Assembly (NCBI GenBank): GCA_965204615.1
Contig: OZ242000.1
Location: 214,956-278,955 of the forward strand
DNA from: Acidimicrobiia bacterium
Lineage (GTDB): Bacteria > Actinomycetota > Acidimicrobiia > Spongiisociales > ZC4RG35
Length of the DNA: 64,000 bases
Reading direction: 5' to 3'
The notes beneath the pieces were generated by a model. The model was given only the letters and a program-made list of their open reading frames with translations. It was not told the origin of the DNA and did no database searches. A program made the translations under genes and the position numbers. This document shows, one piece after another, positions 2,900 to 25,988 of the stretch; within the stretch, counting starts at the first letter, position 1, and each line of letters opens with the position of its first letter.

Positions 2900-2945
2900 T
2901 TCTGTTGAGGAATGGGCCGGAGGGCTGGTATGCTCAATGTCGCCC

Positions 2946-3017
2946 TCGGGGGTGGTGTAATAGGTAACACGACAGGTTCTGGCCCTGTTATTGAGGGTTC
3001 GAGTCCTTCCCCCCGAG
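2946..3017 (+). tRNA. tRNA-Gln(CTG)
   Basis: Acceptor TCGGGGG/CCCCCGA; anticodon arm ACAGG-TTCTGGC-CCTGT; GGTTCGAGTCC T-arm. Confidence 0.95.
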
Positions 3018-3044
3018 CCGGGCCGGCTAAGATCCGGCCCTGTT

Positions 3045-3120
3045 GGCCCCGTCGTCTAGTGGCCTAGGACGCCGGCCTCTCAAGCCGGTAACGCCGGTTC
3101 GAATCCGGTCGGGGCTGCCA
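3045..3120 (+). tRNA. tRNA-Glu(CTC)
   Basis: Anticodon arm CCGGC-CTCTCAA-GCCGG; GGTTCGAATCC; encoded CCA. Confidence 0.95.
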
Positions 3121-3293
3121 CCGGTTGACAAGTTGTGTGACATCCGGGCGTTGCATGCCTAATTGCCTGGGTCCGAGAGGCGCCCCGCAGGCGCCGCCCG
3201 TGGTGCGGTCGCGAAAGAAACCCCAATCCCAACGGTAATGGATTATTCTTGTCGGATATAGACTTTTCTCATGTAACTGGAAAAGAGGTTCTC

Positions 3294-3521
3294 ATGCTGG
3301 ATAATTCCAATTCCGAGGGTGCGGCTTACCCTCCCGTGATAGACACCGCTCAGGTGGCTGAACTGCTACGTATGAATGTGCAGATGGTCCGCAAGTATGT
3401 GCGGGAAGGCCGGCTTCCCGCCTACCAGCTGCCCGGGTCACGGGTCTATCGCTTCATCTATTCCGAAGTGATCGACTACATCAAGTCCCATCCGGTTCGG
3501 CCCGGAGCGGTTCAAAAGTAG
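3294..3521 (+). CDS. Small excisionase/MerR-like HTH DNA-binding protein (HTH_17, BldC-like)
   Basis: DTAQVAELLRMNVQMVRKYVREGRLPAYQLPGSRVYRF pattern. Confidence 0.85.
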   Translation: MLDNSNSEGAAYPPVIDTAQVAELLRMNVQMVRKYVREGRLPAYQLPGSRVYRFIYSEVIDYIKSHPVRPGAVQK

Positions 3522-4131
3522 AAGGCTCTGCGGCCGCCGCCTGCCGGGTCCGTTCCCGCGGGATGAGCGGACGGGTCACGATCGCGATCTCCTCGAAGGG
3601 AAGGTAGGAGTCATACCCCGCCGATTCGACCAGCCACAGGTGGTCGACGGCAACCACTCTGATCCTTCCCTCCAGGGAGACACCCAGGGATGGAGCATGG
3701 ACCTCCACCACCTCCTGGGTCAGTTCCATCTGGACAAGCCTGGCCCTCCATGTGGGAGGCATCCCTCCCGCCTGGGAGCCGCCTGACCGGCGTTTGGTAA
3801 CCCGGAGGGCCACCCGACCCAGACGGGCATCGGCGCAGAGGCGCTCGGTCGCGATGGTGACATAGTCCGCTCCTCCCGCCGTCACCTGTCCGGAGAGTTG
3901 GAGTTCCCCGGCCCGCACGGTCAGGCGGTCTCCACGATGGAGCAGCATCTTGGTCACGTCCCGCAACGTGCGGCGGCGGAGGCGTTCCTGGTGGGTCTCG
4001 AACTCGGTGGCTTCGAACTCGGCGCGCCAGTCCTGTCCCACCCCCTGGCGCAGGTAACGGGCGAGGTCCGATAGACCCTCGGGGGCCGAGGATGGGTCAT
4101 GATCGGACGAACCGGTGGAAAAAAATCTCAT
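3481..4131 (-). CDS. Hypothetical protein, divergent from the tad operon
   Basis: 3' part of ORF 3481..4962 from MRFFST; natural composition; two similar beta-rich halves (GQVTAGGADYVTI / GRIRVVAVDHLWL). Confidence 0.65.
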   Translation of the reverse strand: MRFFSTGSSDHDPSSAPEGLSDLARYLRQGVGQDWRAEFEATEFETHQERLRRRTLRDVTKMLLHRGDRLTVRAGELQLSGQVTAGGADYVTIATERLCADARLGRVALRVTKRRSGGSQAGGMPPTWRARLVQMELTQEVVEVHAPSLGVSLEGRIRVVAVDHLWLVESAGYDSYLPFEEIAIVTRPLIPRERTRQAAAAEPSTFEPLRAEPDGT

Positions 4132-4245
4132 GTTGGGAAAACCCTCCTCCCTGAGTAGCTGTGGGACCTCCCCACCGACATTTATAGTCGGTTCCCGTAC
4201 GTAAATCTTCGGGCGCCGATCGGGGTGATCGGCTCGTGAGGGGAC

Positions 4246-5055
4246 ATGACTTCTTTTACATCCTCGGACAGAAACGACTCCGGACCCGGCGGCGTTCATA
4301 GCCGGCGCAGATGGTTTGCGGCGGTCTCCGGTGCACACTTGCTGATCGTGGCAACCGGGTTGTTGGCGCTGGTCGCCAACCTGGTGCTCCTGCGCCGAGG
4401 GGAGGAGCCTCTGACCCAGGTGGCGGTGAGCGCGGTCGATCTGGCCCCGGGCAGGACCCTCCAGGAGGGGGACACGCAGTTGACCCCCATCGACGTCTCC
4501 GAATCGGTGGCTTCCCGCCTGATCTCTGATGCAGAACTGAACGACTACCGGGGATGGGTGATCATCGGACAGACCTCGGCGGGGTCTCTCCTCACCAAGG
4601 AGAATCTGCGGTCGCCGCTTGCCACCGTGCGGTTTCGGGCGATGAGCTTTCCGGTGGATGCCGACCATGCAGTGGGAGGAGACCTGATCCCCGGCGACTT
4701 GGTGGACGTGATCAGGGTCGACACCGAACAGGCCTCCTTCGTGGCCACCGAGGTGGAGGTGCTGGCGGTCTCGACGCAGTCGGAGGGAGCTCTGGGTCTG
4801 TCCGGGGGCGGTTTCCACCTGATTCTGCAGGTGGATGACAGGACCGCTCTCGCCTTGGCGCTGGCGCTCGCCAATGCGGATGTGGAGGTGCTGCGCTCCA
4901 CCGGGTCCGCTCCGGTGGAGGTTCGGGTTCTCCAAGACGCCGCGTCCGCTCTGGACTCCCACCCGTCGAATCCCGGCGGGTTCGCCGACCCTGGTCTCGA
5001 GCCATTCCCGGAACCGGATGGCCGTGATCAGGCTGGGGAGGAACCGTTGCGGTGA
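4246..5055 (+). CDS. cpaB: Flp pilus assembly protein CpaB/RcpC (SAF domain)
   Basis: N-terminal TM; SAF motif VAVSAVDLAPGRTL; AVGGDLIPGDLVDVI; first gene of the tad operon. Confidence 0.85.
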   Translation: MTSFTSSDRNDSGPGGVHSRRRWFAAVSGAHLLIVATGLLALVANLVLLRRGEEPLTQVAVSAVDLAPGRTLQEGDTQLTPIDVSESVASRLISDAELNDYRGWVIIGQTSAGSLLTKENLRSPLATVRFRAMSFPVDADHAVGGDLIPGDLVDVIRVDTEQASFVATEVEVLAVSTQSEGALGLSGGGFHLILQVDDRTALALALALANADVEVLRSTGSAPVEVRVLQDAASALDSHPSNPGGFADPGLEPFPEPDGRDQAGEEPLR

Positions 5056-6236
5056 GGGACATCGAACTGGCCCTGGCGGTCTCCACCCGCCGTTGGTCCG
5101 ATCACCTGCACCGTTTCCTGGTGGACCATGGGGGAGCGAGAGTCCGGCTGTACGTGATGCAGCCCGGCGACGCCTTCTCGGAGCGGTTCGACGTCCTCCT
5201 CATAGATGACATCTGCTCGTTTCTCTCACCCCACCTGGTGAAGAAACTGAACCGGTCGGGCCGCCGGGTGGTGGGCGTCTACGACCCGGCGGAGTTTTCC
5301 GATGGCAAGGACAGGCTTCTGGCCTGCGAGGTCACCGAGGTGATCGAAGCCGACGCAGGCCCGGAGGAATTCCTGGCGCTGGTCGAGCGGATGGAGATTG
5401 CGCTGCGGCCGGACGACGACCCGACTCCCGACGACCCCACCGGCGGAACGGTCTCCCTTCAACCTGCCGACCGCCCTCCGCTGATCGCGGTTGGGTCTCC
5501 GCCCGGCGGCTGCGGCGCCACCGAAGTGGCCATCGCCCTGGCTCGGCGGTTGGCGGAGCGTCGTGAATCGGTGGCCCTGCTGGATGTCGACGAGCGAGCT
5601 CCTTCGATGGCACAACGCCTCGGGTTGGCTCTCCATCCGAACCTCCTGACCGCCATCGACGCGGTGCACCACGACAGCGAGAGCCTTGAAGCCTGCTGGC
5701 ACGGCGTCAGGGGATCCACCGTCCGGGTACTGCCCGGAGTTCCCACATCTGCGGATCGGGTGGAGCTTCGCAGGGGCGAGGTTGCCGAACTCCTGTTGGA
5801 GACCACCCGGATGTCCGACGTTACCGTGGTCAACTTCGGGTTCTGGGAGAACGGCCGGGGAGACCCCCAAATATGGGAGAGCGCCGGAAACGTATCCGAC
5901 GCGGTGGTGACCATCGCCACCCTCCTGGTGGGGGTGGCGCTTCCCAACCCGGTGGGCATAACGCGGATGATCGAATGGATCGGCCAACTCCGGGTAAGAC
6001 AGCCCAGCCTGGAGGCCTTCCTGGTGATCAACCGCACGCCCGCTTCGCTCACCCAGAGAAGGGCCGTCTTCGACGAGTTGTCAAAGGCGGTCTCCCAGGT
6101 CAGGATCGGTTTTCTACCTGAAGACACACGGGTGGCCGAGGCGGCCTGGAACGGGGTGCTGGTGGACAGGGGAAAGTTCCGCCGCGGCTGTGACCGGTTG
6201 GCGGACCAGGTACTGGGACAGATCGGGCTTGACTGA
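5052..6236 (+). CDS. CpaE/TadZ-like pilus assembly P-loop protein with an N-terminal receiver-like domain
   Basis: Deviant Walker A GSPPGGCGATE; VALLDVD; LVINR; lies between cpaB and tadA. Confidence 0.8.
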   Translation: MRDIELALAVSTRRWSDHLHRFLVDHGGARVRLYVMQPGDAFSERFDVLLIDDICSFLSPHLVKKLNRSGRRVVGVYDPAEFSDGKDRLLACEVTEVIEADAGPEEFLALVERMEIALRPDDDPTPDDPTGGTVSLQPADRPPLIAVGSPPGGCGATEVAIALARRLAERRESVALLDVDERAPSMAQRLGLALHPNLLTAIDAVHHDSESLEACWHGVRGSTVRVLPGVPTSADRVELRRGEVAELLLETTRMSDVTVVNFGFWENGRGDPQIWESAGNVSDAVVTIATLLVGVALPNPVGITRMIEWIGQLRVRQPSLEAFLVINRTPASLTQRRAVFDELSKAVSQVRIGFLPEDTRVAEAAWNGVLVDRGKFRRGCDRLADQVLGQIGLD

Positions 6237-7515
6237 GGGAAGGGCCGCCGGCCACGCCTATGCGGACATCCGCCGCAGTTCCCTGAACCTCATCGAAGAA
6301 CGCAACCTCGACCCCGAGGCGGACCGGGGTGGCGCCCGCAGGCTGGTCGAACAAGCCGTCAAGGAATACTCCCGCCGCACCCAGGTGGGGAGGGGCCGCG
6401 CGCTCCGGGACCCCGCGGACATGATCGAGCGGGTGCTGCGCTCGATCGCCGACTACGGTCCCCTGACCGAGTTGCTGTCCCGTCACGACGTGGAGGAGGT
6501 CTTCATCGAGGGGCCCAGAGTCACGTTCATCGATGGGGCGGGACGCCTGCAGGGCTTGAAGGAGCCGACCACGGTGGAGGAGAACCGGCAGGTGGTGGAC
6601 AGGCTGCTGGCCGGCAGCGATCGTCGGCTGGACGTCTCCCAACCCATCGTCCAGGCTCGGGTGATGGGGGACTCGGCCCGGCTGACGGCTGTCATCCCGC
6701 CCATCTCGGATCAGCTATCGGTCACCCTGCGGCGGTACGCGCTCCGGAGGCAGAGCCTGGATTCCCTGGTGGAACTGGGATCGATGACCCCGGCGGCCGC
6801 CCGCTTTCTGGCCGCCGCAATGCAGACCGAATGCGGGGTGGTCGTCTCCGGTCCGCCGGGAGCGGGCAAGACCTCCCTGCTCAGCGCCCTCTTGGATTCC
6901 TGCCCGCCCACCCGCTGCATCCGCTGCTGCGAAGAGGTGCGGGAACTTCACATCCCGCTCGTTCACGGGTCCTTCTATGAGGCTCGGCCGCCGGGTCTCG
7001 ATGGAAAGGGAGAGATCAGCCTGCGGGTGCTGGTGAAGGCGGTGCTGGCCATGCGTCCCGACCTGATCGTGGTAGGGGAGGTGAGGGGCGCCGAGGCATT
7101 CGAGTTGACCCGGGCCGCCAACGCCGGGTGCGGGTTTGCCTGCACTGTCCATGCCAACTCGGCCGCTGACGCGCTCAATGCGTTGGTGAGCGCGGCGCTG
7201 ATGGCGGGGGAGAATGTCTCGGAGCGGGTGGTGCAACGGGTCTTTGCCTCCGCCATCGACCTGGTGGTGCACGTGGACCGGGAGGCGTTGGGGGCGGACC
7301 GGGGCGGACCGATGCGCCAGGTGCGGGAGATCATCTCGGTGATGCCCGGGCGTCAGGAGTCCTTTTCCACCAGCCCCCTGTTCTCCCGCTCCCGCCTGGG
7401 AGAACCCATGAACTGGGTGGGGGACTCCCTTCCCGGGCCTCTGGTCTCGCGTATCGAACGGGCAACCGGGTTCGGGCTCGAAGCGATACTGAACGGGGAG
7501 GGACCGCAGAGGTGA
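6229..7515 (+). CDS. tadA: TadA/CpaF pilus assembly ATPase
   Basis: GPPGAGKT Walker A; RPDLIVVGEVRGAEA Walker B; TVHANSA His box; TTG start overlapping the upstream gene. Confidence 0.93.
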   Translation: MTEGRAAGHAYADIRRSSLNLIEERNLDPEADRGGARRLVEQAVKEYSRRTQVGRGRALRDPADMIERVLRSIADYGPLTELLSRHDVEEVFIEGPRVTFIDGAGRLQGLKEPTTVEENRQVVDRLLAGSDRRLDVSQPIVQARVMGDSARLTAVIPPISDQLSVTLRRYALRRQSLDSLVELGSMTPAAARFLAAAMQTECGVVVSGPPGAGKTSLLSALLDSCPPTRCIRCCEEVRELHIPLVHGSFYEARPPGLDGKGEISLRVLVKAVLAMRPDLIVVGEVRGAEAFELTRAANAGCGFACTVHANSAADALNALVSAALMAGENVSERVVQRVFASAIDLVVHVDREALGADRGGPMRQVREIISVMPGRQESFSTSPLFSRSRLGEPMNWVGDSLPGPLVSRIERATGFGLEAILNGEGPQR

Positions 7516-8399
7516 AGTGGATCGCCGCGCTCTCCAGTGGGGTCTTTTCCGCCCTCTTTCTGGCGCTGCTGATGGGGTTCCGGCCTCGTCTCCGGGTGCC
7601 CCGACCCCGGAGAAGGAGCCGAGCGCGGGAGTTGTGGCTCGCCCAGGCCGGTCTGAACATCACACCGGTGCAGTTCACCCTGGCCTCGGTGGGAGTGGGT
7701 CTTGTGGCCCTGGTGGTCCTCCTCGGGGTGTCGGGAGTGTGGGTGGTGGCCGCTCCTCCTGCGGTGGTGATCGCCCTCGGGCCCCGGCTCTATTTCGCCC
7801 GGGTGAGGACGAGGCGGCTGTCGGAAGTCAGACGAGCCTGGCCGGACGGGATCAGGGATGTGGTCGGAGGGGTGGCGTCGGGGATGTCCGTCCAGCGGGC
7901 GGTGGAGAATCTGGCCCGCTCGGGCCCCGCACCCCTCCGGGAGGCCTTCCGTCGGTTTCCGATGCTGGCTCGCACCCTGGGAGTGATGCCCGCCCTGGAT
8001 TCCATAAAGGAAAACCTGGCCGACCCCACCAGTGATCGAGTGATAGAGGTTCTCATGATCGCTCATGAGCGGGGTGGTGTCCTGATTCCCGAGATCCTCC
8101 GCGACCTGGCTGATTCCACCTCCATGGACCTGGCAGCCACCGAGGAGGAGCAAACCGAGGCACTGGAGCAGCGCATCAACGCCCGGGTGGTGTTCATGCT
8201 TCCCTGGCTGGTGCTGGTGGCGCTCACCTTCCGGCCAGGTCCCTTTCGGACTTTCTACTCCTCGCCGGCCGGAGTGGTGGTGGTGGCGATCGGAGCGGGA
8301 CTGTCACTGCTGGGCATAGCGCTCATCTCCCGGCTCTCCCGTCCCCAGGAGGAGCCGCGGGTGCTCACCGCCTCGGCCGGGGAGACCGGTCCATGGTAG
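7512..8399 (+). CDS. tadB: TadB inner-membrane platform protein (T2SSF domain)
   Basis: WPDGIRDVVGGVASGMSV; ERGG; TM pattern; operon position. Confidence 0.88.
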   Translation: MKWIAALSSGVFSALFLALLMGFRPRLRVPRPRRRSRARELWLAQAGLNITPVQFTLASVGVGLVALVVLLGVSGVWVVAAPPAVVIALGPRLYFARVRTRRLSEVRRAWPDGIRDVVGGVASGMSVQRAVENLARSGPAPLREAFRRFPMLARTLGVMPALDSIKENLADPTSDRVIEVLMIAHERGGVLIPEILRDLADSTSMDLAATEEEQTEALEQRINARVVFMLPWLVLVALTFRPGPFRTFYSSPAGVVVVAIGAGLSLLGIALISRLSRPQEEPRVLTASAGETGPW

Positions 8400-9343
8400 A
8401 CCAGCCGATGAATCTGGTGGCTGCCGCGTTCACCTCGATCACCGTGATGGGGGTGATGCTGAGGTTCTTTCCGCTACCCAGGCGCCTGAGCGTCAGGGTA
8501 CGTCCCTATGTGGGGATGGGCGGCCTGCCGGGGACCGGACCCGACCCCGGGGTGGTGTTCGGACGGACCTCGGGATCTGCTCCGGTGCGGTTGTTCGGCC
8601 CGATGATTCTGGCCGCGGCGCACCGGATCGGGAGGGTCGCCGACCGGATGGGCGAGGAGCAGTTGGTCCTTCGCCTGCGACAGGCTCGCTTCTATGCGGG
8701 CCTCGAGGACCGGGACCGGGTGGCCTCCTACCGGCTGGCGGTGTTGGGGACGACGGCGATGTTCGTGGCCATGGGGGCGGGGGTGGCGCTGTTCCTGCGC
8801 CAGCCAACCCTGGTGGTCCTCATCGCCTCCGCCGCCGGGGGTCTGACGGGGTCCCTCCGGGTTCGAGCCAGGCTGGATCGGGCGGTGGAACAGCGTCGCT
8901 CGGTGATGAGAATCGAGATCTCCACCATCAATCAGCTTCTGGCCATCCGGGTCCGGTCGGGAAGCGGGGTCATGCACGCCGTGGGGGAGATAACCGCGCG
9001 GGGCAGGGGTGAGGTGATCGGAGAATTGGGGACAGCGCTGCGCATGCACCGTTCGGGAATGAGTCCGGCCGACGCCTTCCGGCGGGTGGCCGAGATCACC
9101 CCGGAGTCCTATTGCGCCCGCACCTACAAGCTGTTGGCCTCATCGGAGGAGATGGGAGTGGATCTGGCCGCCGGACTGCGGACCCTGGCGGATGATGCCC
9201 GCCGGGCTCGCAGGGAGACCCTCCGTCGATCCGCGGTGAAGAGGCGCTCGGCGATGCTCATCCCCACCATCGCCATCCTGGCGCCGGTGATGCTGCTGTT
9301 CGTGGCCGCTCCCCTTCCTCAACTGATTCTTGGTTGGACATAG
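8393..9343 (+). CDS. tadC: TadC inner-membrane platform protein (T2SSF domain)
   Basis: SEEMGVDLAAGLRTLADDARR; C-terminal MLIPTIAILAP. Confidence 0.88.
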   Translation: MVDQPMNLVAAAFTSITVMGVMLRFFPLPRRLSVRVRPYVGMGGLPGTGPDPGVVFGRTSGSAPVRLFGPMILAAAHRIGRVADRMGEEQLVLRLRQARFYAGLEDRDRVASYRLAVLGTTAMFVAMGAGVALFLRQPTLVVLIASAAGGLTGSLRVRARLDRAVEQRRSVMRIEISTINQLLAIRVRSGSGVMHAVGEITARGRGEVIGELGTALRMHRSGMSPADAFRRVAEITPESYCARTYKLLASSEEMGVDLAAGLRTLADDARRARRETLRRSAVKRRSAMLIPTIAILAPVMLLFVAAPLPQLILGWT

Positions 9344-15677: not shown

Positions 15678-15751
15678 GGGGGTGTAGCTCAGCTCGGCAG
15701 AGCGCTTCGTTCGCAACGAAGAGGCCACGGGTTCAAATCCCGTCACCTCCA
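15678..15751 (+). tRNA. tRNA-Ala(CGC)
   Basis: Acceptor GGGGGTG/CACCTCC; anticodon arm CTTCG-TTCGCAA-CGAAG; GGTTCAAATCC. Confidence 0.95.
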
Positions 15752-15801
15752 CTCAAATATCCACTGTTACCCCAGGAGAGAACCCAACCCGGTAACCGGT
15801 A

Positions 15802-15839
15802 TGAATCCCCCCAGCCTCCAAGAAAGCCGGGGGGATTCA
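15802..15839. repeat. Inverted repeat (terminator-like hairpin or collapsed IS3-type ends)
   Basis: TGAATCCCCCCAGCCT...AAGCCGGGGGGATTCA, 14/16 complementary; TGAATC start resembles the IS3-type end at 44899-44927. Confidence 0.5.
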
Positions 15840-15841
15840 AG

Positions 15842-15890
15842 GTGAGTTCTTTCAGTGATCAGGTCTGAGAACTTTCCCTGATCGCCTACA
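15842..15890 (-). mobile_element. Isolated IS21-like terminal end
   Basis: Reverse complement TGTAGGCGATCAGGGAAAGTTCTCAGACCTGATCACTGAAAGAACTCAC: TG terminus with tandem internal repeats; highly similar to 19507-19555. Confidence 0.65.
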
Positions 15891-15992
15891 GTTTCTTCGG
15901 GACCTGAGCCCCTCTGGTGGTTAGTCTGCGGTATGATTGAGCAGGTCGGCGCGGTTGTCGTATATCGGTATGCAGGTGTTTAGGGTTTCAGC

Positions 15993-18900
15993 GTGAAGTT
16001 TGATTGGGCCTGTTGGTTGGGGGTTGTGTTGGGGTTGATGCTCTTAGGTGGGATGGCGGGTGCGGTTGATGATGACGGTTTTGCCTTGCAGGCTGCTGGG
16101 GGTGTTCCGTTGGGTTCTGATTCGTTTGTGGATGTGCCGGTAGGGCATTGGGCTGATGAGGCAGTCGGGTGGGCGGTTTCTAATGGGGTGATGGAGGGTG
16201 TGGGTGGGGGTCGGTTTGATTTGGAGGGGGTGGTGCCGCGTTGGCAGGTGGTGTCGGCTTTGTATGGGGCGTTTGGTTTGGCCGGTGGTAAGGGAGCCGC
16301 CGGGGGTGTTCCGTTGGGTTCTGATTCGTTTGTGGATGTGCCGGTAGGGCATGTGGCTGATGTGGAGGTTGGGTGGGCGGTTTCTGTTGGGATCACTCAG
16401 GGTGTAGGTGGGGGCAGGTTTGATTTGGATGGTTCAGTGACGCGGGCGCAGATTGTTACGTTTTTGTCTCGGTTGAGTGGTTTGTTGGGTGGTCCGGTTG
16501 GCGGTTCAGGGTTGGGTTCTGATTCGTTGGTGGATGTGCCGGTGGGGCATTGGGCTGATGAGGCGGTCGGTTGGGCGGTTGTGAATGGAGTTTCTCGGGG
16601 TGTGGGTGGGGGCAGGTTTGATATGGATCGGGTGGTGTCGCGGGCGCAGATTGCGACGCTTTTGTTTAGGGTGGTCCGGTTGGTGGAGGAGAGCAAAGTT
16701 GATGTGCGGGTGGAGGCCGGAGATTTCACTGCGGTCTCCGCGGGAACATCGCATTCGTGTGGTTTGCGGGCCGATGGCACCATCGTCTGCTGGGGCCGCA
16801 ACGATGTGGGTCAGGCTGACCCACCCGAGGGAGTTTTCACTGCGATCTCCGCCGGCAATTATCATTCGTGTGGGTTGCGGGCCGATGGCACCATCGTCTG
16901 CTGGGGCCGCAACAACTTGGGCCAGGCTGACCCACCCGACGGAAAGTTCACTGCGGTCTCCGCGGGAAACTCTCATTCGTGTGGGTTGCGGGCCGATGGC
17001 ACCGTTGTCTGTTGGGGCAACAACGGCTCGGGTCAGGCTGACCCACCCGACGGAAAGTTCACTGCGGTGTCCGCCGGGTCATTCCGTTCGTGTGGGTTGC
17101 GGGCCAATGGCACCATCGCCTGCTGGGGCGAAAACCGCGTGGCCGGGACGGATTGTGGGTGGGCGTGTCCCAGGCGGGTTGACCCACCCGACGGGATCTT
17201 CACGGCGGTCAACCTAGGATACCATTCGTGTGGGTTGCGGGCCGATGGCACCGCCGTCTGCTGGGGCCTCAACAACTGGGGCCAGGCTGACCCACCCGAC
17301 GGCGAGTTCACGGCGGTCTCCGCCGCCGAAGGAACGCATTCGTGTGGTTTGCGGACCGGTGGCACCATTGTCTGCTGGGGCAGCAACAAATGGGGCCAGG
17401 CTGACCCACCCGACGGCGAGTTCACTGCGGTCACCACAGGAGGAGGGCATTCGTGTGGTTTGCGGGCCGATGGCACCATTGTCTGCTGGGGCCACAACAA
17501 CCGGGGCCAGACTGACGTACCCAAAAAGTTCACGGCGGTCACCACCGGACATCGGCATTCGTGTGGTTTGCGGGCCGATGGCATCATCGTCTGCTGGGGC
17601 AGCAACATATACGTGGGCCGGGTTGAGCAACCCGGCGAGTTCACGGGGGTCTCCGCCGGAAGCGAGCATTCGTGTGGTTTGCGGGCCGATGGCACCATCG
17701 TCTGCTGGGGAAACAACTCAGATCGGAACGGAGACTATGCGGGTCAGGCTGACCCGCCCGACGGGGATTTCACGGGGGTCTCTGCCGGAGGAGGGCATTC
17801 GTGTGGTTTGCGGGTCGATGGCACCATCGTCTGCTGGGGCCTCAACGCCGACGGTCAGGCTGACCCGCCCGACGGGGATTTCACGGCGGTCACCACCGGA
17901 GAGTTGCATTCGTGTGGTTTGCGGGTCGATGGCGCCATTGTCTGCTGGGGCTGGAACAGATACGGTCAGGTTGACCCGCCCGACGGGGATTTCACGGCGG
18001 TCTCCGCCGGAGGAACGTACTCGTGTGGTTTGCGGGTCGATGGCACCATCGTCTGCTGGGGCGACAACGGCAACGGTCAGGTTGACCCGCCCGACGGGGA
18101 TTTCACGGCGGTCTCCGCCGGATCGTGGCATTCGTGTGGTTTGCGGGTCGATGGCACCATCGTCTGCTGGGGCTTCAACGGCAACGGCGAGGTTGACCCG
18201 CCCGACGGGGATTTCACGGCGGTCTCCGCCGGACAATCGCATTCGTGTGGTTGGCGGGCCGATGGCACCATCGCCTGCTGGGGCAGCAACAAATGGGGCC
18301 AGGCTGACCCACCCGACGGGGATTTCACGGCGGTCACCACCGGAGAGTTGCATTCGTGTGGTTTGCGGGTCGATGGCACCGTCGTCTGCTGGGGCGGAAA
18401 CTGGGTGGGTCAGGCTGACCCGCCCGACGGGGATTTCACGGCGGTCTCTGCCGGAGAGTGGCATTCGTGTGGTTTGCGGGCCGATGGCGCCATTGTCTGC
18501 TGGGGTCTCAACTCAGATTGGAACGGTGAGTATGCGGGTCAGGCTGACCCGCCCGATGGGAATTTCACGGCGGTTTCCGCCGGATATTGGCATTCGTGTG
18601 GTTGGCGGGCCGATGGCACCGTCGTCTGCTGGGGCGAAAACTACGCGGGCCGGGCTGACCCACCCGACGGGGATTTCACGGCGGTCACCACAGGAAGTGG
18701 ACATTCGTGTGGTTGGCGGGCCGATGGCACCGTCGTCTGCTGGGGCCGCAACAATGTGGGTCAGGCTGACCCGCCCGACGGGGATTTCACGGCGGTTTCC
18801 GCCGGATATTGGCATTCGTGTGGGTTGCGGGCCGATGGCGCCATTGTCTGCTGGGGATACAACTCAGATTGGAACGGTGAGTATGCGGGTCAGGCTGACC

Positions 18901-19133
18901 CACCCGACGGGGATTTCACGGCGGTGTCCGCCGGATCGTGGCATTCGTGTGGGTTGCGGGCCGATGGCACCATCGTTTGCTGGGGCCAAAACGACGCGGG
19001 TCAGGCTGACCCACCCGACGGAGATTTCACGGCGGTTTCCGCCGCACAGTGGCATTCGTGTGGTTTGCGGACCGGTGGCATCATCGTCTGCTGGGGAAAC
19101 AACCGTTACGGCCAGGCTGAACCACCTCGCTAA
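15993..19133 (+). CDS. Secreted protein with three SLH domains and 21 RCC1/BLIP-II-like repeats
   Basis: Signal peptide; three FVDVPVGHWADEAVGWAV...VTRAQI-type SLH repeats; 21 repeats of FTAVSAGxxHSCGLRADGTIVCWGxNxxGQADPPDG. Confidence 0.93.
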   Translation: MKFDWACWLGVVLGLMLLGGMAGAVDDDGFALQAAGGVPLGSDSFVDVPVGHWADEAVGWAVSNGVMEGVGGGRFDLEGVVPRWQVVSALYGAFGLAGGKGAAGGVPLGSDSFVDVPVGHVADVEVGWAVSVGITQGVGGGRFDLDGSVTRAQIVTFLSRLSGLLGGPVGGSGLGSDSLVDVPVGHWADEAVGWAVVNGVSRGVGGGRFDMDRVVSRAQIATLLFRVVRLVEESKVDVRVEAGDFTAVSAGTSHSCGLRADGTIVCWGRNDVGQADPPEGVFTAISAGNYHSCGLRADGTIVCWGRNNLGQADPPDGKFTAVSAGNSHSCGLRADGTVVCWGNNGSGQADPPDGKFTAVSAGSFRSCGLRANGTIACWGENRVAGTDCGWACPRRVDPPDGIFTAVNLGYHSCGLRADGTAVCWGLNNWGQADPPDGEFTAVSAAEGTHSCGLRTGGTIVCWGSNKWGQADPPDGEFTAVTTGGGHSCGLRADGTIVCWGHNNRGQTDVPKKFTAVTTGHRHSCGLRADGIIVCWGSNIYVGRVEQPGEFTGVSAGSEHSCGLRADGTIVCWGNNSDRNGDYAGQADPPDGDFTGVSAGGGHSCGLRVDGTIVCWGLNADGQADPPDGDFTAVTTGELHSCGLRVDGAIVCWGWNRYGQVDPPDGDFTAVSAGGTYSCGLRVDGTIVCWGDNGNGQVDPPDGDFTAVSAGSWHSCGLRVDGTIVCWGFNGNGEVDPPDGDFTAVSAGQSHSCGWRADGTIACWGSNKWGQADPPDGDFTAVTTGELHSCGLRVDGTVVCWGGNWVGQADPPDGDFTAVSAGEWHSCGLRADGAIVCWGLNSDWNGEYAGQADPPDGNFTAVSAGYWHSCGWRADGTVVCWGENYAGRADPPDGDFTAVTTGSGHSCGWRADGTVVCWGRNNVGQADPPDGDFTAVSAGYWHSCGLRADGAIVCWGYNSDWNGEYAGQADPPDGDFTAVSAGSWHSCGLRADGTIVCWGQNDAGQADPPDGDFTAVSAAQWHSCGLRTGGIIVCWGNNRYGQAEPPR
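16722..19130 (+). repeat. Tandem ~111-bp coding repeat array (21 units)
   Basis: Near-invariant core CATTCGTGTGGTTTGCGGGCCGATGGCACCATCGTCTGCTGGGGC recurring mostly every 111 bp, with a few indel variants. Confidence 0.97.
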
Positions 19134-19346
19134 GACACCCCGTGCGTTATTCCAAGACACCCTCGAAGAGACATGGTGCCAATCTGAACTGGGTCATCGC
19201 AATTAGGTGTGGAGTGTGATGGCGGTGTTCTGGACCCTGGAAGAAGTTGTCGGGAAGTCTGGATGTGGCCAAGACCCACGGGGAATAGCAGCGGTTACAC
19301 CTGTCCAGATCGTGGCTGATGGTGATCGGGGAACGGGGGACCGGTC

Positions 19347-19505
19347 TCAGGAGTCCAGGTAGTGGTTCCACTCTTGCATGAGGTTGCGGCGTCGTTCGAG
19401 TAGGTCTGTTCTGGCGTAGGCTTTTTCGACGGTGTTTCTGATTTCGTGGCCGAGGGCACGTTCTGCGATCTCGCGGGCTGTGCCGGTTTCTGCGCACCAG
19501 TCTCG
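19347..19505 (-). pseudogene. C-terminal remnant of a P4-type tyrosine integrase
   Basis: Manual translation RDWCAETGTAREIAERALGHEIRNTVEKAYARTDLLERRRNLMQEWNHYLDS*, containing LGH and the catalytic Tyr; cut by an IS21-like end. Confidence 0.8.
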
Positions 19506-19506
19506 G

Positions 19507-19555
19507 TGATGGGGATCATTGAAAGTACTCAGGCCTGATCACTGAAAGTACTCAT
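19507..19555 (+). mobile_element. IS21-like terminal end
   Basis: TGATGGGGATCATTGAAAGTACTCAGGCCTGATCACTGAAAGTACTCAT with tandem GATCA.TGAAAGTACTCA repeats. Confidence 0.65.
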
Positions 19556-19649
19556 GTGTTGGGGGTTAATACCCGTAGTCGGGTTGTGTTGGCGATCACT
19601 GAAGCATCCCAGTCTCGATCACTGAAAGTTCCCATGCGTGTTATATGTG

Positions 19650-19850
19650 GGGGGTGTGGCAGTGCCGGTGGGGATGGCTCCAAAGTTCCCTGCCGATTCC
19701 CCTTTTTGGGGGATTTGGCTTTCAGGTGAGTGCCTCCCCACCGGTTGCCGGCCCGGTGTTGTCGCTTGATAGGAGCGTGACCTAGACCGTTTGATCGGTG
19801 TCTGTTGCTCAACGCATGGATGCGCTTCACCGAGCTTTCTGCCGCTCCCG
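19650..19850 (+). ncRNA. Putative bridge RNA of IS110 A
   Basis: Two stem-enclosed loops with four guide segments matching the target and donor junctions (9/9, 7/7, 8/8, 8/8); RNA ends approximate. Confidence 0.75.
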
Positions 19851-19883
19851 AACAAAGCCCCTATTCGATTGGAGAAGAAGCCG

Positions 19884-20912
19884 ATGTTGGTTATCGGGAT
19901 CGACTCGCACAAGGATACCCTTTCGGCCTGTTTGGTGGACCACCTGGGCACGGCCCTGGAGTACCGCACCATCGCTAACACCCCTGCCGGTCACCGCCAG
20001 TTGGTTGATTGGGCGGAGACCACCAAGGCGGCCACAGTGGCGGTTGAGGGGTCCGGCACGTTCGGTCGTCCACTGGCGGTGGCTGCTGTCGGCGCCGGTC
20101 TGGACGTTCGGGAGGTGCCGCCCCAGCTGACCGCCCGCCTTCGCCGCCGGGGCCGTACCCAGACCAAGACCGACCAGGTCGACGCGTTGGTGATCGCCCG
20201 GGTCGCTCTCCGAGACCACACCCTTTCTGCTCCAACCCATTGGGAGGACACCGAAGACCTGCGTGTGCTGGTCTCATACCGCCGTGAACTGGTAGAAGAC
20301 CGCACCGCAGGGGCCAACCGTCTCCACGCCGACCTGGGGAAGCTCCGACCCGGCTACCACCAGAACATTCCCCGGTTCACCACCCGAAAAGCCCTTGACC
20401 AGGCCATGAAACTCTTATGGCGGGACACCACCTGTCACGGGCGGGTAGCCAAACAACGCATCCGAAGACTGCGACAGCTGGACACCGAGATCAAAGAGCT
20501 CACCGCCCAGATCAAAACACTGGTCGACCAATCCGGAACCCGTCTACTCGACATTCACGGAGTGGGGGTGCTGGTCGCTGCCACCATCCTCTCGGAGGTG
20601 GGCAACCCCCACCGCTATCCGACCAAAGACAAGTTCGCCATGGCCAACGGCACCGCACCCATCGAAGCCAGTTCCGGGCGGATAGTGAGACATCGCCTCA
20701 ACCGCGGTGGGAACCGCCAACTCAACCGGGCAATCCACACCGCCGCCTTGACCCAGATCGCACGCGCAGACAGCGAAGGCCGCCGCTACTACCAGAAACT
20801 CAAAACCCGCGGGAAAACCCACAGAGACGCAATCCGCGTCCTCAAAAGACGAATCTCAGACCGCATCTGGACCCACCTCCAACCACCAAAAACCGGCCCG
20901 ATTTTGCCATAG
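19884..20912 (+). CDS. IS110-family DEDD recombinase/transposase
   Basis: VIGIDSHKD, VAVEGSG, KTDQVDA, GVGVLVAA, ASSG...HRLNRGGNRQLN. Confidence 0.95.
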   Translation: MLVIGIDSHKDTLSACLVDHLGTALEYRTIANTPAGHRQLVDWAETTKAATVAVEGSGTFGRPLAVAAVGAGLDVREVPPQLTARLRRRGRTQTKTDQVDALVIARVALRDHTLSAPTHWEDTEDLRVLVSYRRELVEDRTAGANRLHADLGKLRPGYHQNIPRFTTRKALDQAMKLLWRDTTCHGRVAKQRIRRLRQLDTEIKELTAQIKTLVDQSGTRLLDIHGVGVLVAATILSEVGNPHRYPTKDKFAMANGTAPIEASSGRIVRHRLNRGGNRQLNRAIHTAALTQIARADSEGRRYYQKLKTRGKTHRDAIRVLKRRISDRIWTHLQPPKTGPILP

Positions 20913-21021
20913 GAGCTCACCTCCTGGGGGTAAATGCCCGTTGTTGGGTAGGGCTCTCTCCAAGCTAAGGGATTGTCACATTTCCTAGCTGTGGAGAGGA
21001 GCCCTGCCCCTTATGATGCTT

Positions 21022-22096
21022 CTATGGTTTCCAAATCGGTCTCTGGGGGTGGTGGGGGTTGGTTGGTGGGTTTTCGAGGAGGCGGTAGAGCTGGCGGGCT
21101 ATGTAGCGTTTGAGGCAGCGGCGGGCTTCTCGGGTGGTTTTGCCTTGGCTGATGCGTTTGGCGAGGTAGGCCCGGGTTTTGGGACAGTATCGGGAGCGGC
21201 TGAGGGCGATGGTGTGGAGGGCCTGGTTGAGTTTTCGGTCGCCGCGTCTGTTCAGTCGGTGGCGGGTTCGTTGGCCGGAGGAGGCTTGTAGGGGGGCGAC
21301 GCCGGCTAGCCGAGCGAACGCTGCTTCGTTGCGGCACCGGCGAGGGTGAGACCATGCTATGTAGATTTGGGTGGCGGTGATCGGTCCTACTCCGGGCTGG
21401 TCGAGCAGGTGGGGAGCGACAGTGGTGATCAGTTCGGTGATGGTTGTTCTCAGTTGGTTTGCTTCGTCGGTGAGGGCTCGGATCCGGCGGGCTGCGGATC
21501 GCATGGCTTGTTTGGTTGCGGTGTGTTCGTTGATGGTGTCGGACGGGAGGCGGAACCCGGAGCATTTGGCCACCAGAGCTGTGGTGGTGAGTCCTCGGAG
21601 TTGGTCGCGTAGATCGACCGGCGCGGTTACTAGGAGGGCTTTCAGTTCGTTGATCGCCGCTGTTCTGGCTGTTATTGCGCCTCGGCGGGTGGTTTCCAAC
21701 ACTCGGAGGGCTTCGCGGTTTCCACGTACCCGCGGTGCAGAAGGCTGGGAGCGGCCTAGTGTTTGGCGGGCGGCCCGACGAGCGTCCAGGGTGTCGGTCT
21801 TGGCACCGTCGATGCTGGGGGTGGGATTGTTGAACTCTATTACCCACTCACCCCGAGCAGCGAGATAGGCCGCTATGCCGGCTCCGTAGCTTCCGGTGCC
21901 TTCCACGGACCACGCCCGGTCGCCGGTTTGGGTGTGCTGATCGGCCCATTTCACCAACCTCTCGTATCCCAACTGGGTGGTCGCGAACGCTGCGGATGCT
22001 TGTTCTCCGGTAGTGGCGGTGTCCACTACCGACGCGGTGACCCGGTCACGATCCGGGTCGATCCCGGATTACATGTTCAACTGATGCCACAGCCAT
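21022..22096 (-). pseudogene. IS110 recombinase with a 1-bp frameshift near the N-terminus
   Basis: MAVASVEHVI joins GIDPDRDRVTASVVD only if one base near 22066 is removed; downstream VEGTGSYG, KTDTLDA, ASSG..RHRLNRRGDRKLN; a sequencing error is possible. Confidence 0.8.
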
Positions 22097-22119
22097 CCCT
22101 TTTCCTTTCTGTTGCTTAC

Positions 22120-22340
22120 AATTTCGGGTTGCCCATAGAGGCGCGATCCGCGAACGGCAGAACTGTGATGAGTCACACCCCCTGGGGGTGGACAGGCTTC
22201 TGATTAGGCCAGCGCGGTACGCAGGCTGCTGCTGGCGGTTGGTGTCGGACAGATCATAAGAAAGACACCTAACGGGGTCAATTGGCACAAGGGTCACGAC
22301 ACCACCACCAGCAGCTGACCTGAAACACTCTCTGAAGAGC
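22120..22340 (-). ncRNA. Putative bridge RNA of IS110 B
   Basis: Long stem 22228-22247/22297-22315 and hairpin CACCCCCTGGGGGTG; segments complementary to both junctions (8/8 each); ends approximate. Confidence 0.65.
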
Positions 22341-22359
22341 ATCCCCCACATTCTCACAG

Positions 22360-22470
22360 TTGGTCCAGGAGGAGTACTTGGAGGTTCATGCTTTGAGGAG
22401 GCGGGGGTGGTCGATCTCGGCTATTGCCCGCCATATTGGAAAGAGACGCCGAACCGTCCGGGGGCAATGA
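22360..22470 (+). pseudogene. istA: IS21 transposase IstA N-terminal fragment
   Basis: LVQEEYLEVHALRRRGWSISAIARHIGKRRRTVRG*, a typical IstA HTH start. Confidence 0.78.
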
Positions 22471-23078
22471 TGGGTGTCTCCTTGCCTTGATCAGATGATG
22501 AGGCAAGGAGCTCGATGGGAAGGGTGGGGGCTACCCGCGCAATGTGCTTAGGGATTTAGTACCCGGCGGGTAGCCCCCGGTGGTGCCCAGAGGTTCCTTA
22601 TGTCTGGCAGGCACCACGATTGGTGAGAGACCCCTTCCTTCTGTTGGTCCAAAGCGAGGATTGGAGAACTCCAAGAAAAGGTTCACAGGGGTCTCTCACG
22701 AAGGGGTGGGGCTGTGTCTCATTGATGAGATGCAGGTTCAAGGAGTCGCTCAGACGGCGAGGTCCGAGCGGCTCGGCTCCCACGATCAAGTCTGGCCGTG
22801 CTCTGACAACCACTTTGCTGTTCCCTCTCCTACGGAGTGGGCCATGGGTACTGGGCATCGCTCCGCCGCCCGCTGGAAGGCGGCGTTCGCTCAATGGCTG
22901 GGGTCCTTGGGCAAATCCCGGCAACGCTTGCCCATCGGCTCTCCTCTCTCCTATCCATGGGCCCTTTCAACCGTATGTGTTTCTCGGGTAAATGTTGGTA
23001 GTAGTAGTCACAAATCTATTGTAAACATATTAGGAAAGGGGTAGCCGCATATGATGGCGATGTGGTTGAATCGGGGTT

Positions 23079-23106
23079 TCTCAAAGGCTTCTCAGGGAAG
23101 TCTTGT
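23079..23106 (+). promoter_or_regulatory. Candidate OmpR/MprA-type direct-repeat operator
   Basis: TCTCAA-N5-TCTCAG-N5-TCTTGT, 11-bp period, upstream of a gene with an OmpR-type output domain. Confidence 0.3.
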
Positions 23107-23320
23107 CATATCCTGCTGGTAGGACGCGGGCAGTTCCCATTCTCCTGTCAATCGGAGTAGTTGGGGTAGTAAAACGTTGCAGAAGGTTGGGTTGTGAGCA
23201 TGTCGAGGATGAATGTGCAGTAGCGGCAGGTCACACAGGTACTCAGAAATCAACCCACTGTCAGATATACTCTGGACGGGAAACGACGCGGTCCTAACTC
23301 AAGCAAGAAGGGAAAAATTG

Positions 23321-25690
23321 GTGCAGCCAGACGAGCGAGACAGGGAGTTTCTGGCGTTGAAGGATCGCCTGTCGCGGCTTAGCCAGGCCAGCCTGCGCAT
23401 CAACGAGAGCCTGGACTTCGATACAGTGCTCCAGGGCGTTCTCGATTCGGCTCGCTCCCTGACCGGTGCCCGCTACGGGGTGATGACGCTGCTGGATGGC
23501 GGGGGCCCGGTGGAGGACTTCCTGTCCTCGGGGATGACTGCCGGGGAGGAGGAGCGGTTGTGGCAGGTCCCGCAGGGCGTGGAGGTCTTTGAGGCTCTGA
23601 TCAGTTCTTCGGAACCATCGAGGCTCCCCGACTTGGCGGACCACATTCGGTCTATGGGATTCAGCAGGTTCACCATACCTCCGCTGGTTGAGGCTTCGGC
23701 GTTCCTGGCGGCGCCGATGTTTCATCAGGGTGTTCGGGTGGGCCATGTCTTTCTGGGGGGCAAGCCCGGCGGGGAGGAGTTCACCAGGGAGGACGAGGAG
23801 ACTCTGGTGATGTTTGCCTCACAGGCGGCGCTGGTTATCGCCAACGCCCGCAGGCACCGGGAGGAACGGCAGGCTCGGTCGGACCTGGAAACACTGGTGG
23901 ACACCTCACCGGTGGGTGTTGTTGTCTTCGACGCTCGGACCGGGACGCGGGTGTCGTTCAACCGGGAGGCGGCGCGCATCGTGGACGGCCTGCGGGAGGG
24001 GGAGCAGCGGCCGGAGGACCTGCTGGAGTTTGTGACCTGTGTGCGTTCCGACGGCCGTGAGGTCTCCCTTATGGAATCGCCGTGGGTCGAGGTTTTAGGG
24101 GCCGGCGAGACGGTCCGCGCCGAAGAGATCGTGCTGCGGGTGCCTGACGGGCGGAGCGTCAGCGTTCTGCTCAACGCCACGCCCATCCACTCCGAAGACG
24201 GCCAGTTGATGTCCTTGGTCGTGACGCTCCAGGACATGACCCCCCTGAAGGAGCAGGAGCGGCTGCGGGCTGAGTTCCTGGCCATGGTGGGCAACGAGTT
24301 GAGAATGCCTCTGGCCGCCGTGAAGGGATCGGTAACCACCTTGCTGGAGGCCGCCGGTGATTTGGACCTTGCAGAGATGACTCAGTTCTTTCGCATAATT
24401 CGCGACCAGTCGGACCGGATGAGGTACCTGATCGGTGACCTCTTGGACCTGGCCCGCATCGAGGCCGGCGCCCTCCGGGTGGATCCCGAGCCCGCCGACC
24501 TGCGCCTGGTGGTGGATGAGGCTAAAGCCAGGTTCGTGACCGGAGACGCCAGGAACGCTCTGAAGGTGGATTTGGCGGCAGACTTGCCCTTGGTGATGGC
24601 CGATCAGCGACGCATCGTCCAGGTGCTGAGCAACCTGCTGGCCAACGCCGCCAGGTATTCACCGGACGGGTCGCCGGTGCTGGTGACCGCGGCCCGGGAG
24701 GGGGTACACGTGGGGATATCGGTCTCCGACCAGGGGAGGGGAATCCAGCCGGAAGTGCTGCCTGAGCTGTTTCGCAAGTACTCACGGGCATCCGCCGTCG
24801 ATGGGTCGGGTCTGGGTCTGGTCGTCTGCAAGGGTATCGTCGAAGCGCACGGCGGTCGCATCCGGGCCGAGAGCGACGGCCCGGGGCTGGGGGCGCGGTT
24901 CACATTCACGCTGCCGGTGGTGGAGCAGGCTGCAACCTCTGTCACCGCTCCGTCCCATCTCGCTTCCCGGTCGGCGACGCGGATCCGCGTCCTGGCCGTT
25001 GACGACGACCCGCAGGCGCTGAGGTACGTCCGCGAGGTACTTTCGAGGGGCGGCTACGACCCCATCGTGACCGGCGACCTCGTCGATGTTCCCCGCCTCA
25101 TGGCGGAGGAGAAGCCCCATGTTGTGTTGCTGGACCTGGTGGGGCCGGGAATCGACGGCATCGTGCTGATGACCGACATAATGAAAACGGCAGACGTGCC
25201 GGTCATCTTCCTGTCGGTGTACGGCCAGGATGAGATCGTGGCGAGGGCCTTGGACATGGGGGCTGCCGACTATCTGATAAAGCCGTTCTCCCCGACGGAA
25301 CTGGCCGCCAGGATCCGGACCGCCCTTCGAAAGCGGTTGGATCCCTTCCAGGGCGAGCCCTCGGGACCCTACAACACGGGACGCCTGAGCATCGATTACC
25401 TCCATCGCCGGGTGACCGTGGGTGGGAAGCCGGTGAAATTGACCGCTACCGAATACGCCCTGCTCTACGAACTGGCAGTCCATGCTCCCAGGGTGCTGAC
25501 CCACGGCCTGCTGTTGCAGCGGGTCTGGGGTCCCGAGAGGGTCGACGAAGCGTGGCTGGTGCGAGATGTGGTCAAGAGGCTCCGCCGCAAGCTGGGCGAC
25601 AGCGCCGACAGCCCCACCTACATATTCACCGAACCACGCGTGGGCTACCGGATGGCCGGCGAAAAGACCCGGGACGGGCAAGAGACCTGA
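23321..25690 (+). CDS. Fused sensor kinase-response regulator (GAF-PAS-HisKA-HATPase-REC-OmpR wHTH) with a degenerate H-box
   Basis: QVLSNLLANAARY, DQGRGI, GSGLGL, AVDDD, DYLIKPF, LTATEY, TEPRVGYR; H-box reads GNELRMPL; start uncertain. Confidence 0.92.
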   Translation: MQPDERDREFLALKDRLSRLSQASLRINESLDFDTVLQGVLDSARSLTGARYGVMTLLDGGGPVEDFLSSGMTAGEEERLWQVPQGVEVFEALISSSEPSRLPDLADHIRSMGFSRFTIPPLVEASAFLAAPMFHQGVRVGHVFLGGKPGGEEFTREDEETLVMFASQAALVIANARRHREERQARSDLETLVDTSPVGVVVFDARTGTRVSFNREAARIVDGLREGEQRPEDLLEFVTCVRSDGREVSLMESPWVEVLGAGETVRAEEIVLRVPDGRSVSVLLNATPIHSEDGQLMSLVVTLQDMTPLKEQERLRAEFLAMVGNELRMPLAAVKGSVTTLLEAAGDLDLAEMTQFFRIIRDQSDRMRYLIGDLLDLARIEAGALRVDPEPADLRLVVDEAKARFVTGDARNALKVDLAADLPLVMADQRRIVQVLSNLLANAARYSPDGSPVLVTAAREGVHVGISVSDQGRGIQPEVLPELFRKYSRASAVDGSGLGLVVCKGIVEAHGGRIRAESDGPGLGARFTFTLPVVEQAATSVTAPSHLASRSATRIRVLAVDDDPQALRYVREVLSRGGYDPIVTGDLVDVPRLMAEEKPHVVLLDLVGPGIDGIVLMTDIMKTADVPVIFLSVYGQDEIVARALDMGAADYLIKPFSPTELAARIRTALRKRLDPFQGEPSGPYNTGRLSIDYLHRRVTVGGKPVKLTATEYALLYELAVHAPRVLTHGLLLQRVWGPERVDEAWLVRDVVKRLRRKLGDSADSPTYIFTEPRVGYRMAGEKTRDGQET

Positions 25691-25988
25691 AACGGCCGAC
25701 TTGGCGCGATTACGCCGCTCACGGTCAAGCAGCGGCATGGGTAGAGTTGAGTAGGTAGCGACGCGGGCAGTTGCGTCGGATTGTTCCCCGCATCCAACCG
25801 GGCTGGGGACAACCAGCCCGATCGGTGTGGATGCTGTCAGGCCGGCCGATACCTCTCGTGTCGATTACAAGGCAGTCCGTCGCGTGAAAGGAGAGGCCCG
25901 TGCTCGTTTTGCCGTGGCCGCGAGCGCGCCCGGTTTGTCATGGACCCGTCGGACTGTCGTCAAGCCACCGGCGCCCTTCGGGTGGATC

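Follow-up and report, generated by a model that had tools for sequence, protein, structure and literature searches.

Among highly repetitive propellers, those of the RCC1/BLIP-II type form the third most populated group (10%) and are mostly bacterial; they are described as amplified from single blades, independently in close homologs (Pereira & Lupas 2022, PMC9218822). For BLIP-II, 22 residues contacting TEM-1 or Bla1 have been listed (PMC10817188), and binding has been ascribed to apical turns and inter-blade loops (10.1101/2024.08.26.609822). The propeller of ACR4, a CRINKLY4 protein, features a Cys pair forming one disulfide per blade, a pattern called unique to CRINKLY4 (10.1101/2020.08.10.245050). 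In the WD40 repeats encoded by the HNWD/NWD genes of Podospora anserina, including het-d and het-e, concerted evolution by repeat exchange is reported, together with positive selection at four positions of the interaction face (PMC1805685; PMC4986451). The gene analyzed here lies in a window of 64,000 nucleotides from an Acidimicrobiia bacterium (assembly GCA_965204615.1, contig OZ242000.1, positions 214,956 to 278,955 of the forward strand), and positions below are those of this window unless stated otherwise. It consists of one open reading frame (ORF) of 1046 aa, with a GTG start, which holds both an array of 21 RCC1_2 repeats, or blades, and an SLH anchor. The framework of the blades is nearly uniform at the DNA level, five positions per blade, grouped in two slots named A and B, are highly variable, and the divergence of the slots is in excess of that of the framework.

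Blades, numbered r1 to r21, were delimited by splitting the translation at the anchor FT[AG][VI]. This anchor and the motifs 'SCG' and 'CWG' were each counted 21 times; the blades are 36-47 aa long, with 37 aa in 13/21, and a C-X9-CWG motif, with one SCG and one CWG per blade, is found in 21/21, in agreement with an earlier note on this DNA, made from the sequence only, according to which two Cys are kept in each repeat. The Pfam model RCC1_2 (PF13540) matches 21 stretches (E 7.6e-164, 528.5 bits, cut-off 22), WD40_RLD, a model of the RCC1-like domain, matches with E 3.4e-85, and 111-nt repeats were detected by Tandem Repeats Finder (TRF) across 16718-19126.

The most variable columns of the codon alignment are 7 and 9, which make up slot A (SAG-xx-H), and 25, 27 and 34, which make up slot B (CWG-x-N-xx-G). 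Each of the five contains 8-12 residues, with a nucleotide diversity of 0.53-0.78 at codon positions 1 and 2; at framework third positions, 14/32 are invariant and none exceeds a diversity of 0.56. As the earlier note had counted, the first position of slot B alone is occupied by 12 different residues over the 21 repeats. Nei-Gojobori proportions of synonymous (pS) and nonsynonymous (pN) differences, taken over all 210 repeat pairs, are 0.203 (framework pS), 0.094 (framework pN) and 0.675 (slot pN); for the youngest block, r9-r20, the corresponding values are 0.151, 0.057 and 0.655. The ratio of slot dN to framework dS, both Jukes-Cantor corrected, is about 7 to 9, and the mean nucleotide distance is 0.117 for the framework versus 0.634 for the slots. 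These figures bear out the description of 21 repeats of about 37 aa with near-uniform framework DNA, synonymous sites included. Such uniformity does not derive from codon bias, because the invariant framework codons CAT, TCG, TGT, GGT and TTG are minority codons of the genome (TTG accounts for 11% of Leu, TGT for 32% of Cys, CAT for 34% of His and GGT for 22% of Gly).

The residues found in the slots were compared with the expectation from base composition. Asn is enriched 8.6x, Tyr 5x and Trp 4x, Pro is absent against 8.6 expected (p = 1e-4) and Cys is absent against 3.7 expected, while the codons vary at all three positions and among all four bases. This composition fits what a binding surface may require, rather than drift.

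In order to place the slots on a structure, blades r9-r15 were modelled by AlphaFold2 (AF2), using an alignment of 49 in-phase seven-blade windows drawn from this gene and its relatives. The model reaches a predicted local distance difference test score (pLDDT) of 97.4 and a predicted template modelling score (pTM) of 0.92, and contains three strands per blade, FTAVSA (beta1), HSCGLR (beta2) and IVCWG (beta3). In it, slot A is in the turn between beta1 and beta2, and slot B comes immediately after beta3; since the strands form an antiparallel meander, both slots are predicted on the same side of the sheet. The best Foldseek matches of the model are BLIP-II structures (3qi0/1jtd; template modelling (TM) score 0.78-0.79, root mean square deviation 1.8 A, 30-31% identity), followed by the CRINKLY4 ectodomains 7a0j and 7a0k (ACR4/PpCR4; TM score 0.77-0.79). 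A profile search detected ACR4 at 7.3e-37 and BLIP-II at 8.7e-32, and in a single-sequence search of solved structures ACR4 was the best match (E 2.9e-32). Model and searches thus support the seven-bladed, BLIP-II-like fold that the earlier note had named for these repeats.

The listed BLIP-II contacts were then mapped through the profile alignment, with an inferred numbering offset of +38, for which the residue identities checked agree. The five slot positions, which are 5/37 of each blade, receive 17/22 contacts: Asn50, Trp53, Tyr73, Phe74, Leu91, Asn112, Asp131, Trp152, Asp167, Asp170, Asp206, Tyr208, Phe209, Ile229, Phe230, Glu268 and Trp269. Gly49 and Asn51 fall inside the slot-B loop, Thr57 is a framework position and Asn304 is outside the alignment; the residue given as 'Tyr19' in PMC10817188, presumably Tyr191, lies one position past slot A and was not counted. 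Since so many contacts align to them, the slots would form one apical face, in line with the earlier suggestion that A and B share a face.

In both sequence and profile alignments, the Cys pair of each blade aligns with that of ACR4, and by analogy one disulfide per blade may be expected. The grouping of the 21 blades as three seven-bladed propellers is suggested by the AF2 model and by the number of CWG motifs per ORF in relatives, which clusters near 7, 13-14, 20-21 and 27. As a separate observation, the slot-B loop of r4 contains a 10-residue insertion with two Cys, which may form an extra disulfide-closed loop on the apical face.

The history of the array was evaluated by comparing framework and slots between blades. 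Frameworks differ at 3 to 20 of 96 nt, the blades r9-r20 being the most alike, and the mean framework distance climbs smoothly with blade offset. The smooth rise, with no dip at offset 7, speaks for an array that grew one blade at a time, not one propeller at a time, and duplication of whole propellers with a period of 7 blades was rejected on the same grounds. Slot distances are nearly independent of framework distances (Mantel r = 0.14, p = 0.05), as are slot A and slot B of each other (r = -0.12) and the framework segments F1, F2 and F3 among themselves (r = 0.04-0.22). For the 20 pairs of closest framework (3-7 differences in 96 nt) the slot distance is 0.62, versus 0.63 overall, and 65% of the informative site pairs are incompatible. 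According to the Mantel tests, the histories of framework segments and slots are therefore uncorrelated, and the mosaicism anticipated by the earlier note is present.

The shared slots that the note had pointed out were all found in the codon alignment. Four pairs of blades have identical slot-A hexamers (GAG TTG in r11/r15, TAT TGG in r17/r19, TCG TGG in r13/r20, GGA GGG in r7/r10), against 0.73 expected (20,000 shuffles, P = 0.007); one pair has an identical slot-B triple (AGC AAC AAA TGG in r6/r14), against 0.07 expected (P = 0.07). The extended SD(R/W)NG(D/E)YA loop is present in r9, r16 and r19, which have in common a 6-residue extension of the second (slot-B) loop, with a slot-B distance between r9 and r19 of 0.11. 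A shared slot is always paired with a different partner, as no two of the 21 blades are identical at both slots. Slots are mostly unique (17/21 for A, 20/21 for B), so that reuse of slots or cassettes is a minor source of diversity. The pattern fits short-tract exchange, by gene conversion or unequal recombination, between blades inside the gene.

The same contrast was evaluated in relatives. At least 5466 matches at E <= 0.001 were obtained among 7994 candidates scored, and many of these proteins pair RCC1_2 with SLH, S8 peptidase, FN3, Big_2 or cadherin domains. Matches occur in 16/16 other genomes searched of the genus and in 23/31 searched overall (including G021); phage homologs are distant, with 8/50,697 phage records matching at 27-37% identity. 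A paralog search of the genome itself, indicated as a check in the earlier note, returned three further RCC1_2 genes with SLH-like parts, whose blades and frameworks are diverged, and no exchange of repeats with these paralogous loci is visible. A set of 34 family genes was assembled from 43 ORFs, after exclusion of 4 genes that had under 6 repeats and of 5 fragments of paralogs from the own genome. In this set slot pN ranges from 0.52 to 0.75 regardless of framework pS (0.20-0.72), for which the gene described here has the lowest value, and the same five positions are the five of highest entropy in 405 blades from the other family genes. Each of four other young arrays has a set of consensus framework codons of its own, at 63-76% identity to those of this array, which indicates independent homogenisation. 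No description of the slot positions of this RCC1_2 family was found in a literature search.

Two further observations concern other genes. A contig of an Anaerolineaceae metagenome-assembled genome (L025, about 2090-9000) contains four tandem RCC1_2 genes of 7, 14, 14 and 14 blades by hidden Markov model, with fairly young frameworks (pS 0.32-0.46) and saturated slots. In the own genome, outside the window (G000:C1:68497-69231), a 1421-aa frame carries an N-terminal SLH module 79% identical to residues 7-252 of the protein, so that the anchor module is apparently common to different surface proteins.

The explanation that we consider probable is that of an SLH-tethered propeller protein with a variable apical binding face, produced by concerted evolution together with selection on the face. 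The protein would be secreted and held at the cell wall by its SLH repeats, and its 21 blades would fold into three seven-bladed propellers of BLIP-II/CRINKLY4 type, with one disulfide stapling each blade. Each propeller would show an apical face of 5 variable residues per blade, about 35 in all; the face, rich in Trp, Tyr, Asn and Ser, is a putative ligand-binding surface, whose ligand would most likely be a protein. Amplification of single blades, with intragenic short-tract gene conversion or unequal recombination, would maintain uniformity in the scaffold DNA, with a slot copied from time to time, and selection would keep, or drive, the apical residues apart from blade to blade. Binding itself is proposed by analogy, and the selection acting on the slots may be positive, rather than merely preserving diversity.

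Display through SLH repeats, already proposed in the earlier note, is supported by the Pfam SLH match (E 2.1e-11, 44 bits against a cut-off of 20.8). SLH domains typically come three in tandem. Together with a signal peptide, judged by eye, this makes the product most likely a secreted, SLH-anchored surface protein; neither a kinase nor a TNFR domain was found in it by the Pfam scan.

A neutral origin of the pattern, which we regard as rather unlikely, would make the five positions unconstrained loops, with conversion confined to the framework segments (45-48 nt between slots) and slots drifting to saturation, so that neither diversifying selection nor a particular role in binding would be required. 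It would account for the maximum of variability at these positions, found in young and old arrays alike across all 34 family genes, and for the independent histories of the framework segments, as short-tract conversion would give; the weakness of the pairwise homoplasy index (PHI) test also agrees with it. The composition of the slots is, however, far from mutational expectation (Pro and Cys missing, Asn, Tyr and Trp 4-9 fold up), and most BLIP-II contacts map to slot positions. In addition, conversion tracts sometimes carry slots, as indicated by the four shared A hexamers, and without selection the slots would be homogenised too.

Several points weigh against selection on an apical face as the explanation. 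With windows of 3, 5 and 8, the PHI test gives p = 0.03, 0.066 and 0.38 for the 111-column alignment, a marginal outcome, and segment-wise Mantel tests were used in its place. Of the per-codon rate and recombination checks that the earlier note had suggested, the slot excess and the uncoupling seen by Mantel tests are positive, the PHI result marginal. The rate comparison presumes a single history for slots and framework, and omega above 1 is not proven because recombination breaks this assumption. Slots are equally saturated in old, diverged arrays, and their diversity here could be old and merely preserved. No relative is close enough for a comparison between strains: identity peaks at 63% in 30 related genomes and at 60% among the matches listed from 5.8 billion proteins, genome contigs reach at most 49%, save for a segment of 59% over the SLH part only, and metagenome contigs at most 52%. 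As for the structure, AF2 applied to the full 812-aa repeat region as a single sequence gave a pLDDT of 35.7, and the seven-blade window r9-r15 was picked arbitrarily.

Blade order and number, finally, rest on the assembly: among the contigs of the four sequencing runs compared (X12, X13, X1 and X3) none bridges the whole array, short-read contigs being interrupted within it. An artefact of assembly or polishing, which would have produced a chimeric array or homogenised the framework by consensus, would profit from this circumstance; we hold it to be very unlikely, as the frame stays open over 3.1 kb, all 21 blades are complete and the same pattern is found in other genes from other assemblies. 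In addition, X12 and X13 contigs show 0 differences over five pieces (16629-16780, 17039-17252, 17282-17401, 17450-17695 and 18947-19400), slots included, with the limit that these runs may be the source sample and hence not independent. Contigs from X1 (52 pieces at >=99% identity) and X3 (one piece) derive from relatives. Among the best-supported differences to these related contigs, 10/22 are in slot columns, whose share of the array is 15.5%, and the hint they give is weak, as the list is a selected one and short contigs may be placed on the wrong blade.

Some details of these comparisons are reported as such. The same GTT -> GCT change (Val to Ala) at column 47 makes up 4/12 framework differences, in r4, r8, r12 and r13 (17058-18212); these changes run towards the majority state of the array, as expected either from blade conversion in a related strain or from misplaced contigs. 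Apparent 'joints' between contigs, with sides of 20-40 nt (most under 31) that are not multiples of 111 nt, were discarded as placement artefacts in repeats. One X13 contig (3101 nt, depth 32.8) omits exactly one 204-nt SLH unit at 16097-16302, with 51 nt fitting both sides, which represents either a two-SLH variant or a collapse in short-read assembly.

The earlier note had read the array as antibody-like, comparable to VLR or TALE repeats, and had suggested a search for a reverse transcriptase of a diversity-generating retroelement (DGR) and for silent cassettes. A programmed mechanism of this kind, either DGR mutagenic retrohoming or conversion from cassettes as in VLR, pilE/pilS and vlsE, would rewrite the slots within the population; saturated slots beside a near-identical framework, the recurrence of shared slots in new combinations and, weakly, the slot share of the contig differences are what it would produce. 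A dedicated search was made in the genome, which is available as one contig of 3.33 Mb, 94.8% complete. The reverse transcriptase domain RVT_1 has 0 matches in it, whereas the same search was positive in 3/14 control genomes. A blastn search of the whole genome with r9-r13 gave 25 high-scoring segment pairs inside the gene and 7 outside, all of the latter corresponding to paralogs at 62-80% identity; genome-wide, the same search revealed no extragenic copy of the homogenised framework, no DGR template repeat near-identical to the variable region and no silent donor cassettes sharing the framework. DGR changes are adenine-directed, whereas the slot codons vary at all positions and bases; the slots are, in addition, mostly unique, and the only recombinases nearby are two IS110 transposases. 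So far as the search methods reach, DGR and silent cassettes are largely refuted, the combinatorial reading is not supported, and we consider programmed diversification extremely unlikely. The diversity observed is that between the blades of one protein, and the array reveals no new diversification machinery.

The features of the gene and of its surroundings are collected in Table 1. A tRNA-Ala gene (15678-15752) is located just upstream. MoaC and a small membrane protein, encoded upstream, are kept in 8/8 loci of related species, and in 0/8 of them does an RCC1 gene directly follow, two of the loci stopping at contig ends; in one genome (G011) an RCC1 gene is found about 8.5 kb from the MoaC locus, in opposite orientation. 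Since the flanks are kept and no RCC1 gene directly follows in relatives, the gene sits in a variable region (15678-25700), where related species differ between the conserved flanks. In one of these species (G012) the same place is occupied by a transposase that shares 95% identity with the second IS110 gene.

Table 1. Coordinates of the gene, its repeats and neighboring genes within the window. S is the first position of a canonical 37-codon blade.
Feature	Position	Strand	Basis or remarks
Whole gene: signal peptide, SLH x3, 21 RCC1_2 (BLIP-II/crinkly-type) blades	15993..19133	+	ORF list, Pfam
Probable signal peptide, MKFDWACWLGVVLGLMLLGGMAGA / VDDD	15993..16067	+	By eye: hydrophobic stretch, then A-x-A-like site
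Three SLH repeats, cell-wall anchor	16098..16665	+	TRF 204-nt period, 2.8 copies, 78% matches; Pfam SLH
Array of 21 blades	16725..19130	+	FT[AG][VI] anchor split
Blade starts r1-r7	16725, 16836, 16947, 17058, 17199, 17307, 17421	+	
Blade starts r8-r14	17529, 17640, 17769, 17880, 17991, 18102, 18213	+	
Blade starts r15-r21	18324, 18435, 18564, 18675, 18786, 18915, 19026	+	
Slot A	S+21..S+26		Codons 8-9
Slot B	S+72..S+74, S+78..S+83		Codon 25, codons 27-28
Blades r9-r15, modelled seven-blade window	17640..18434	+	AF2 model, Foldseek
r4 slot-B loop insertion (GTDCGWACPR)	17145..17174	+	10 residues, two extra Cys
r9 extended slot-B loop SDRNGDYA	17718..17741	+	Near-copies in r16 (18513-18536) and r19 (18864-18887)
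IS110-family transposase gene 1	19791-20912	+	
IS110-family transposase gene 2	21022-22026	-	
Hybrid sensor kinase GAF-PAS-HisKA-HATPase-REC-Trans_reg_C	23213-25690		

The family is very large and uncharacterised, and this gene represents an unusually clean case, in which the functional positions are visible directly from DNA; they stand out because the scaffold is so uniform. As the slots coincide with experimentally defined BLIP-II contacts, a testable map of the binding face becomes available for a class of bacterial surface proteins. A wider proposal, of which we are doubtful, is that SLH-anchored RCC1_2 arrays constitute a widespread surface recognition repertoire of bacteria, with faces quickly re-specified within populations by blade amplification and intragenic short-tract conversion under diversifying selection. 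If this were true, the arrays would correspond, in bacteria and outside the cell, to the NLR repeat system of fungi, and phages or other partners might be engaged with them in an arms race; they would also provide a natural disulfide-stapled binder scaffold with a code of 5 residues per blade.

Compared with the systems introduced above, the protein shares with BLIP-II of Streptomyces exfoliatus (1jtd, 3qhy, 3qi0) secretion, a seven-bladed architecture and three-stranded blades of about 40 aa, all predicted here, and BLIP-II binds through aromatic residues of apical turns and loops at the very positions that are hypervariable in the array. BLIP-II is, however, a single propeller with diverged blades, devoid of an SLH anchor and of a Cys pair per blade; the slot residues differ in the present protein, and nothing points to binding of a beta-lactamase. 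CRINKLY4 (ACR4/PpCR4; 7a0j, 7a0k) provides the best sequence match among solved structures, with a C-X(9-10)-CWG motif, aligned Cys and an extracellular location, but this plant protein is a receptor kinase that has, besides its single propeller, a TNFR-like domain and a pore-filling N-terminal strand (10.1101/2020.08.10.245050). A CR4 phylogeny paper makes no mention of bacteria, and the presence of the crinkly Cys pattern in a large bacterial family may be relevant to where the plant domain came from.

The RCC1/BLIP-II propellers surveyed by Pereira and Lupas belong to the same fold group, and their independent amplification resembles that of the young arrays reported here. The main text of PMC9218822 describes neither the slot-framework contrast nor a mapping of contact residues, and the words 'hypervariable', 'diversifying', 'SLH' and 'S-layer' are absent from it.

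In its way of evolving, the array most resembles the fungal HNWD WD40 family, a likeness of mode and not of homology. The HNWD proteins are cytosolic, of STAND/NLR type, with four-stranded WD40 blades, and exchange repeats between paralogous loci, whereas the protein described here is predicted to be secreted, SLH-anchored and built of three-stranded, Cys-stapled blades, with no such exchange visible. Common to both, on the published description of HNWD, are propeller repeats, a high internal conservation at the DNA level and a small number of diversifying positions on one face, four in HNWD and five here. With the array, the combination of a concerted scaffold and a diversifying face, known from fungal NLRs, would extend to a secreted protein of bacteria.

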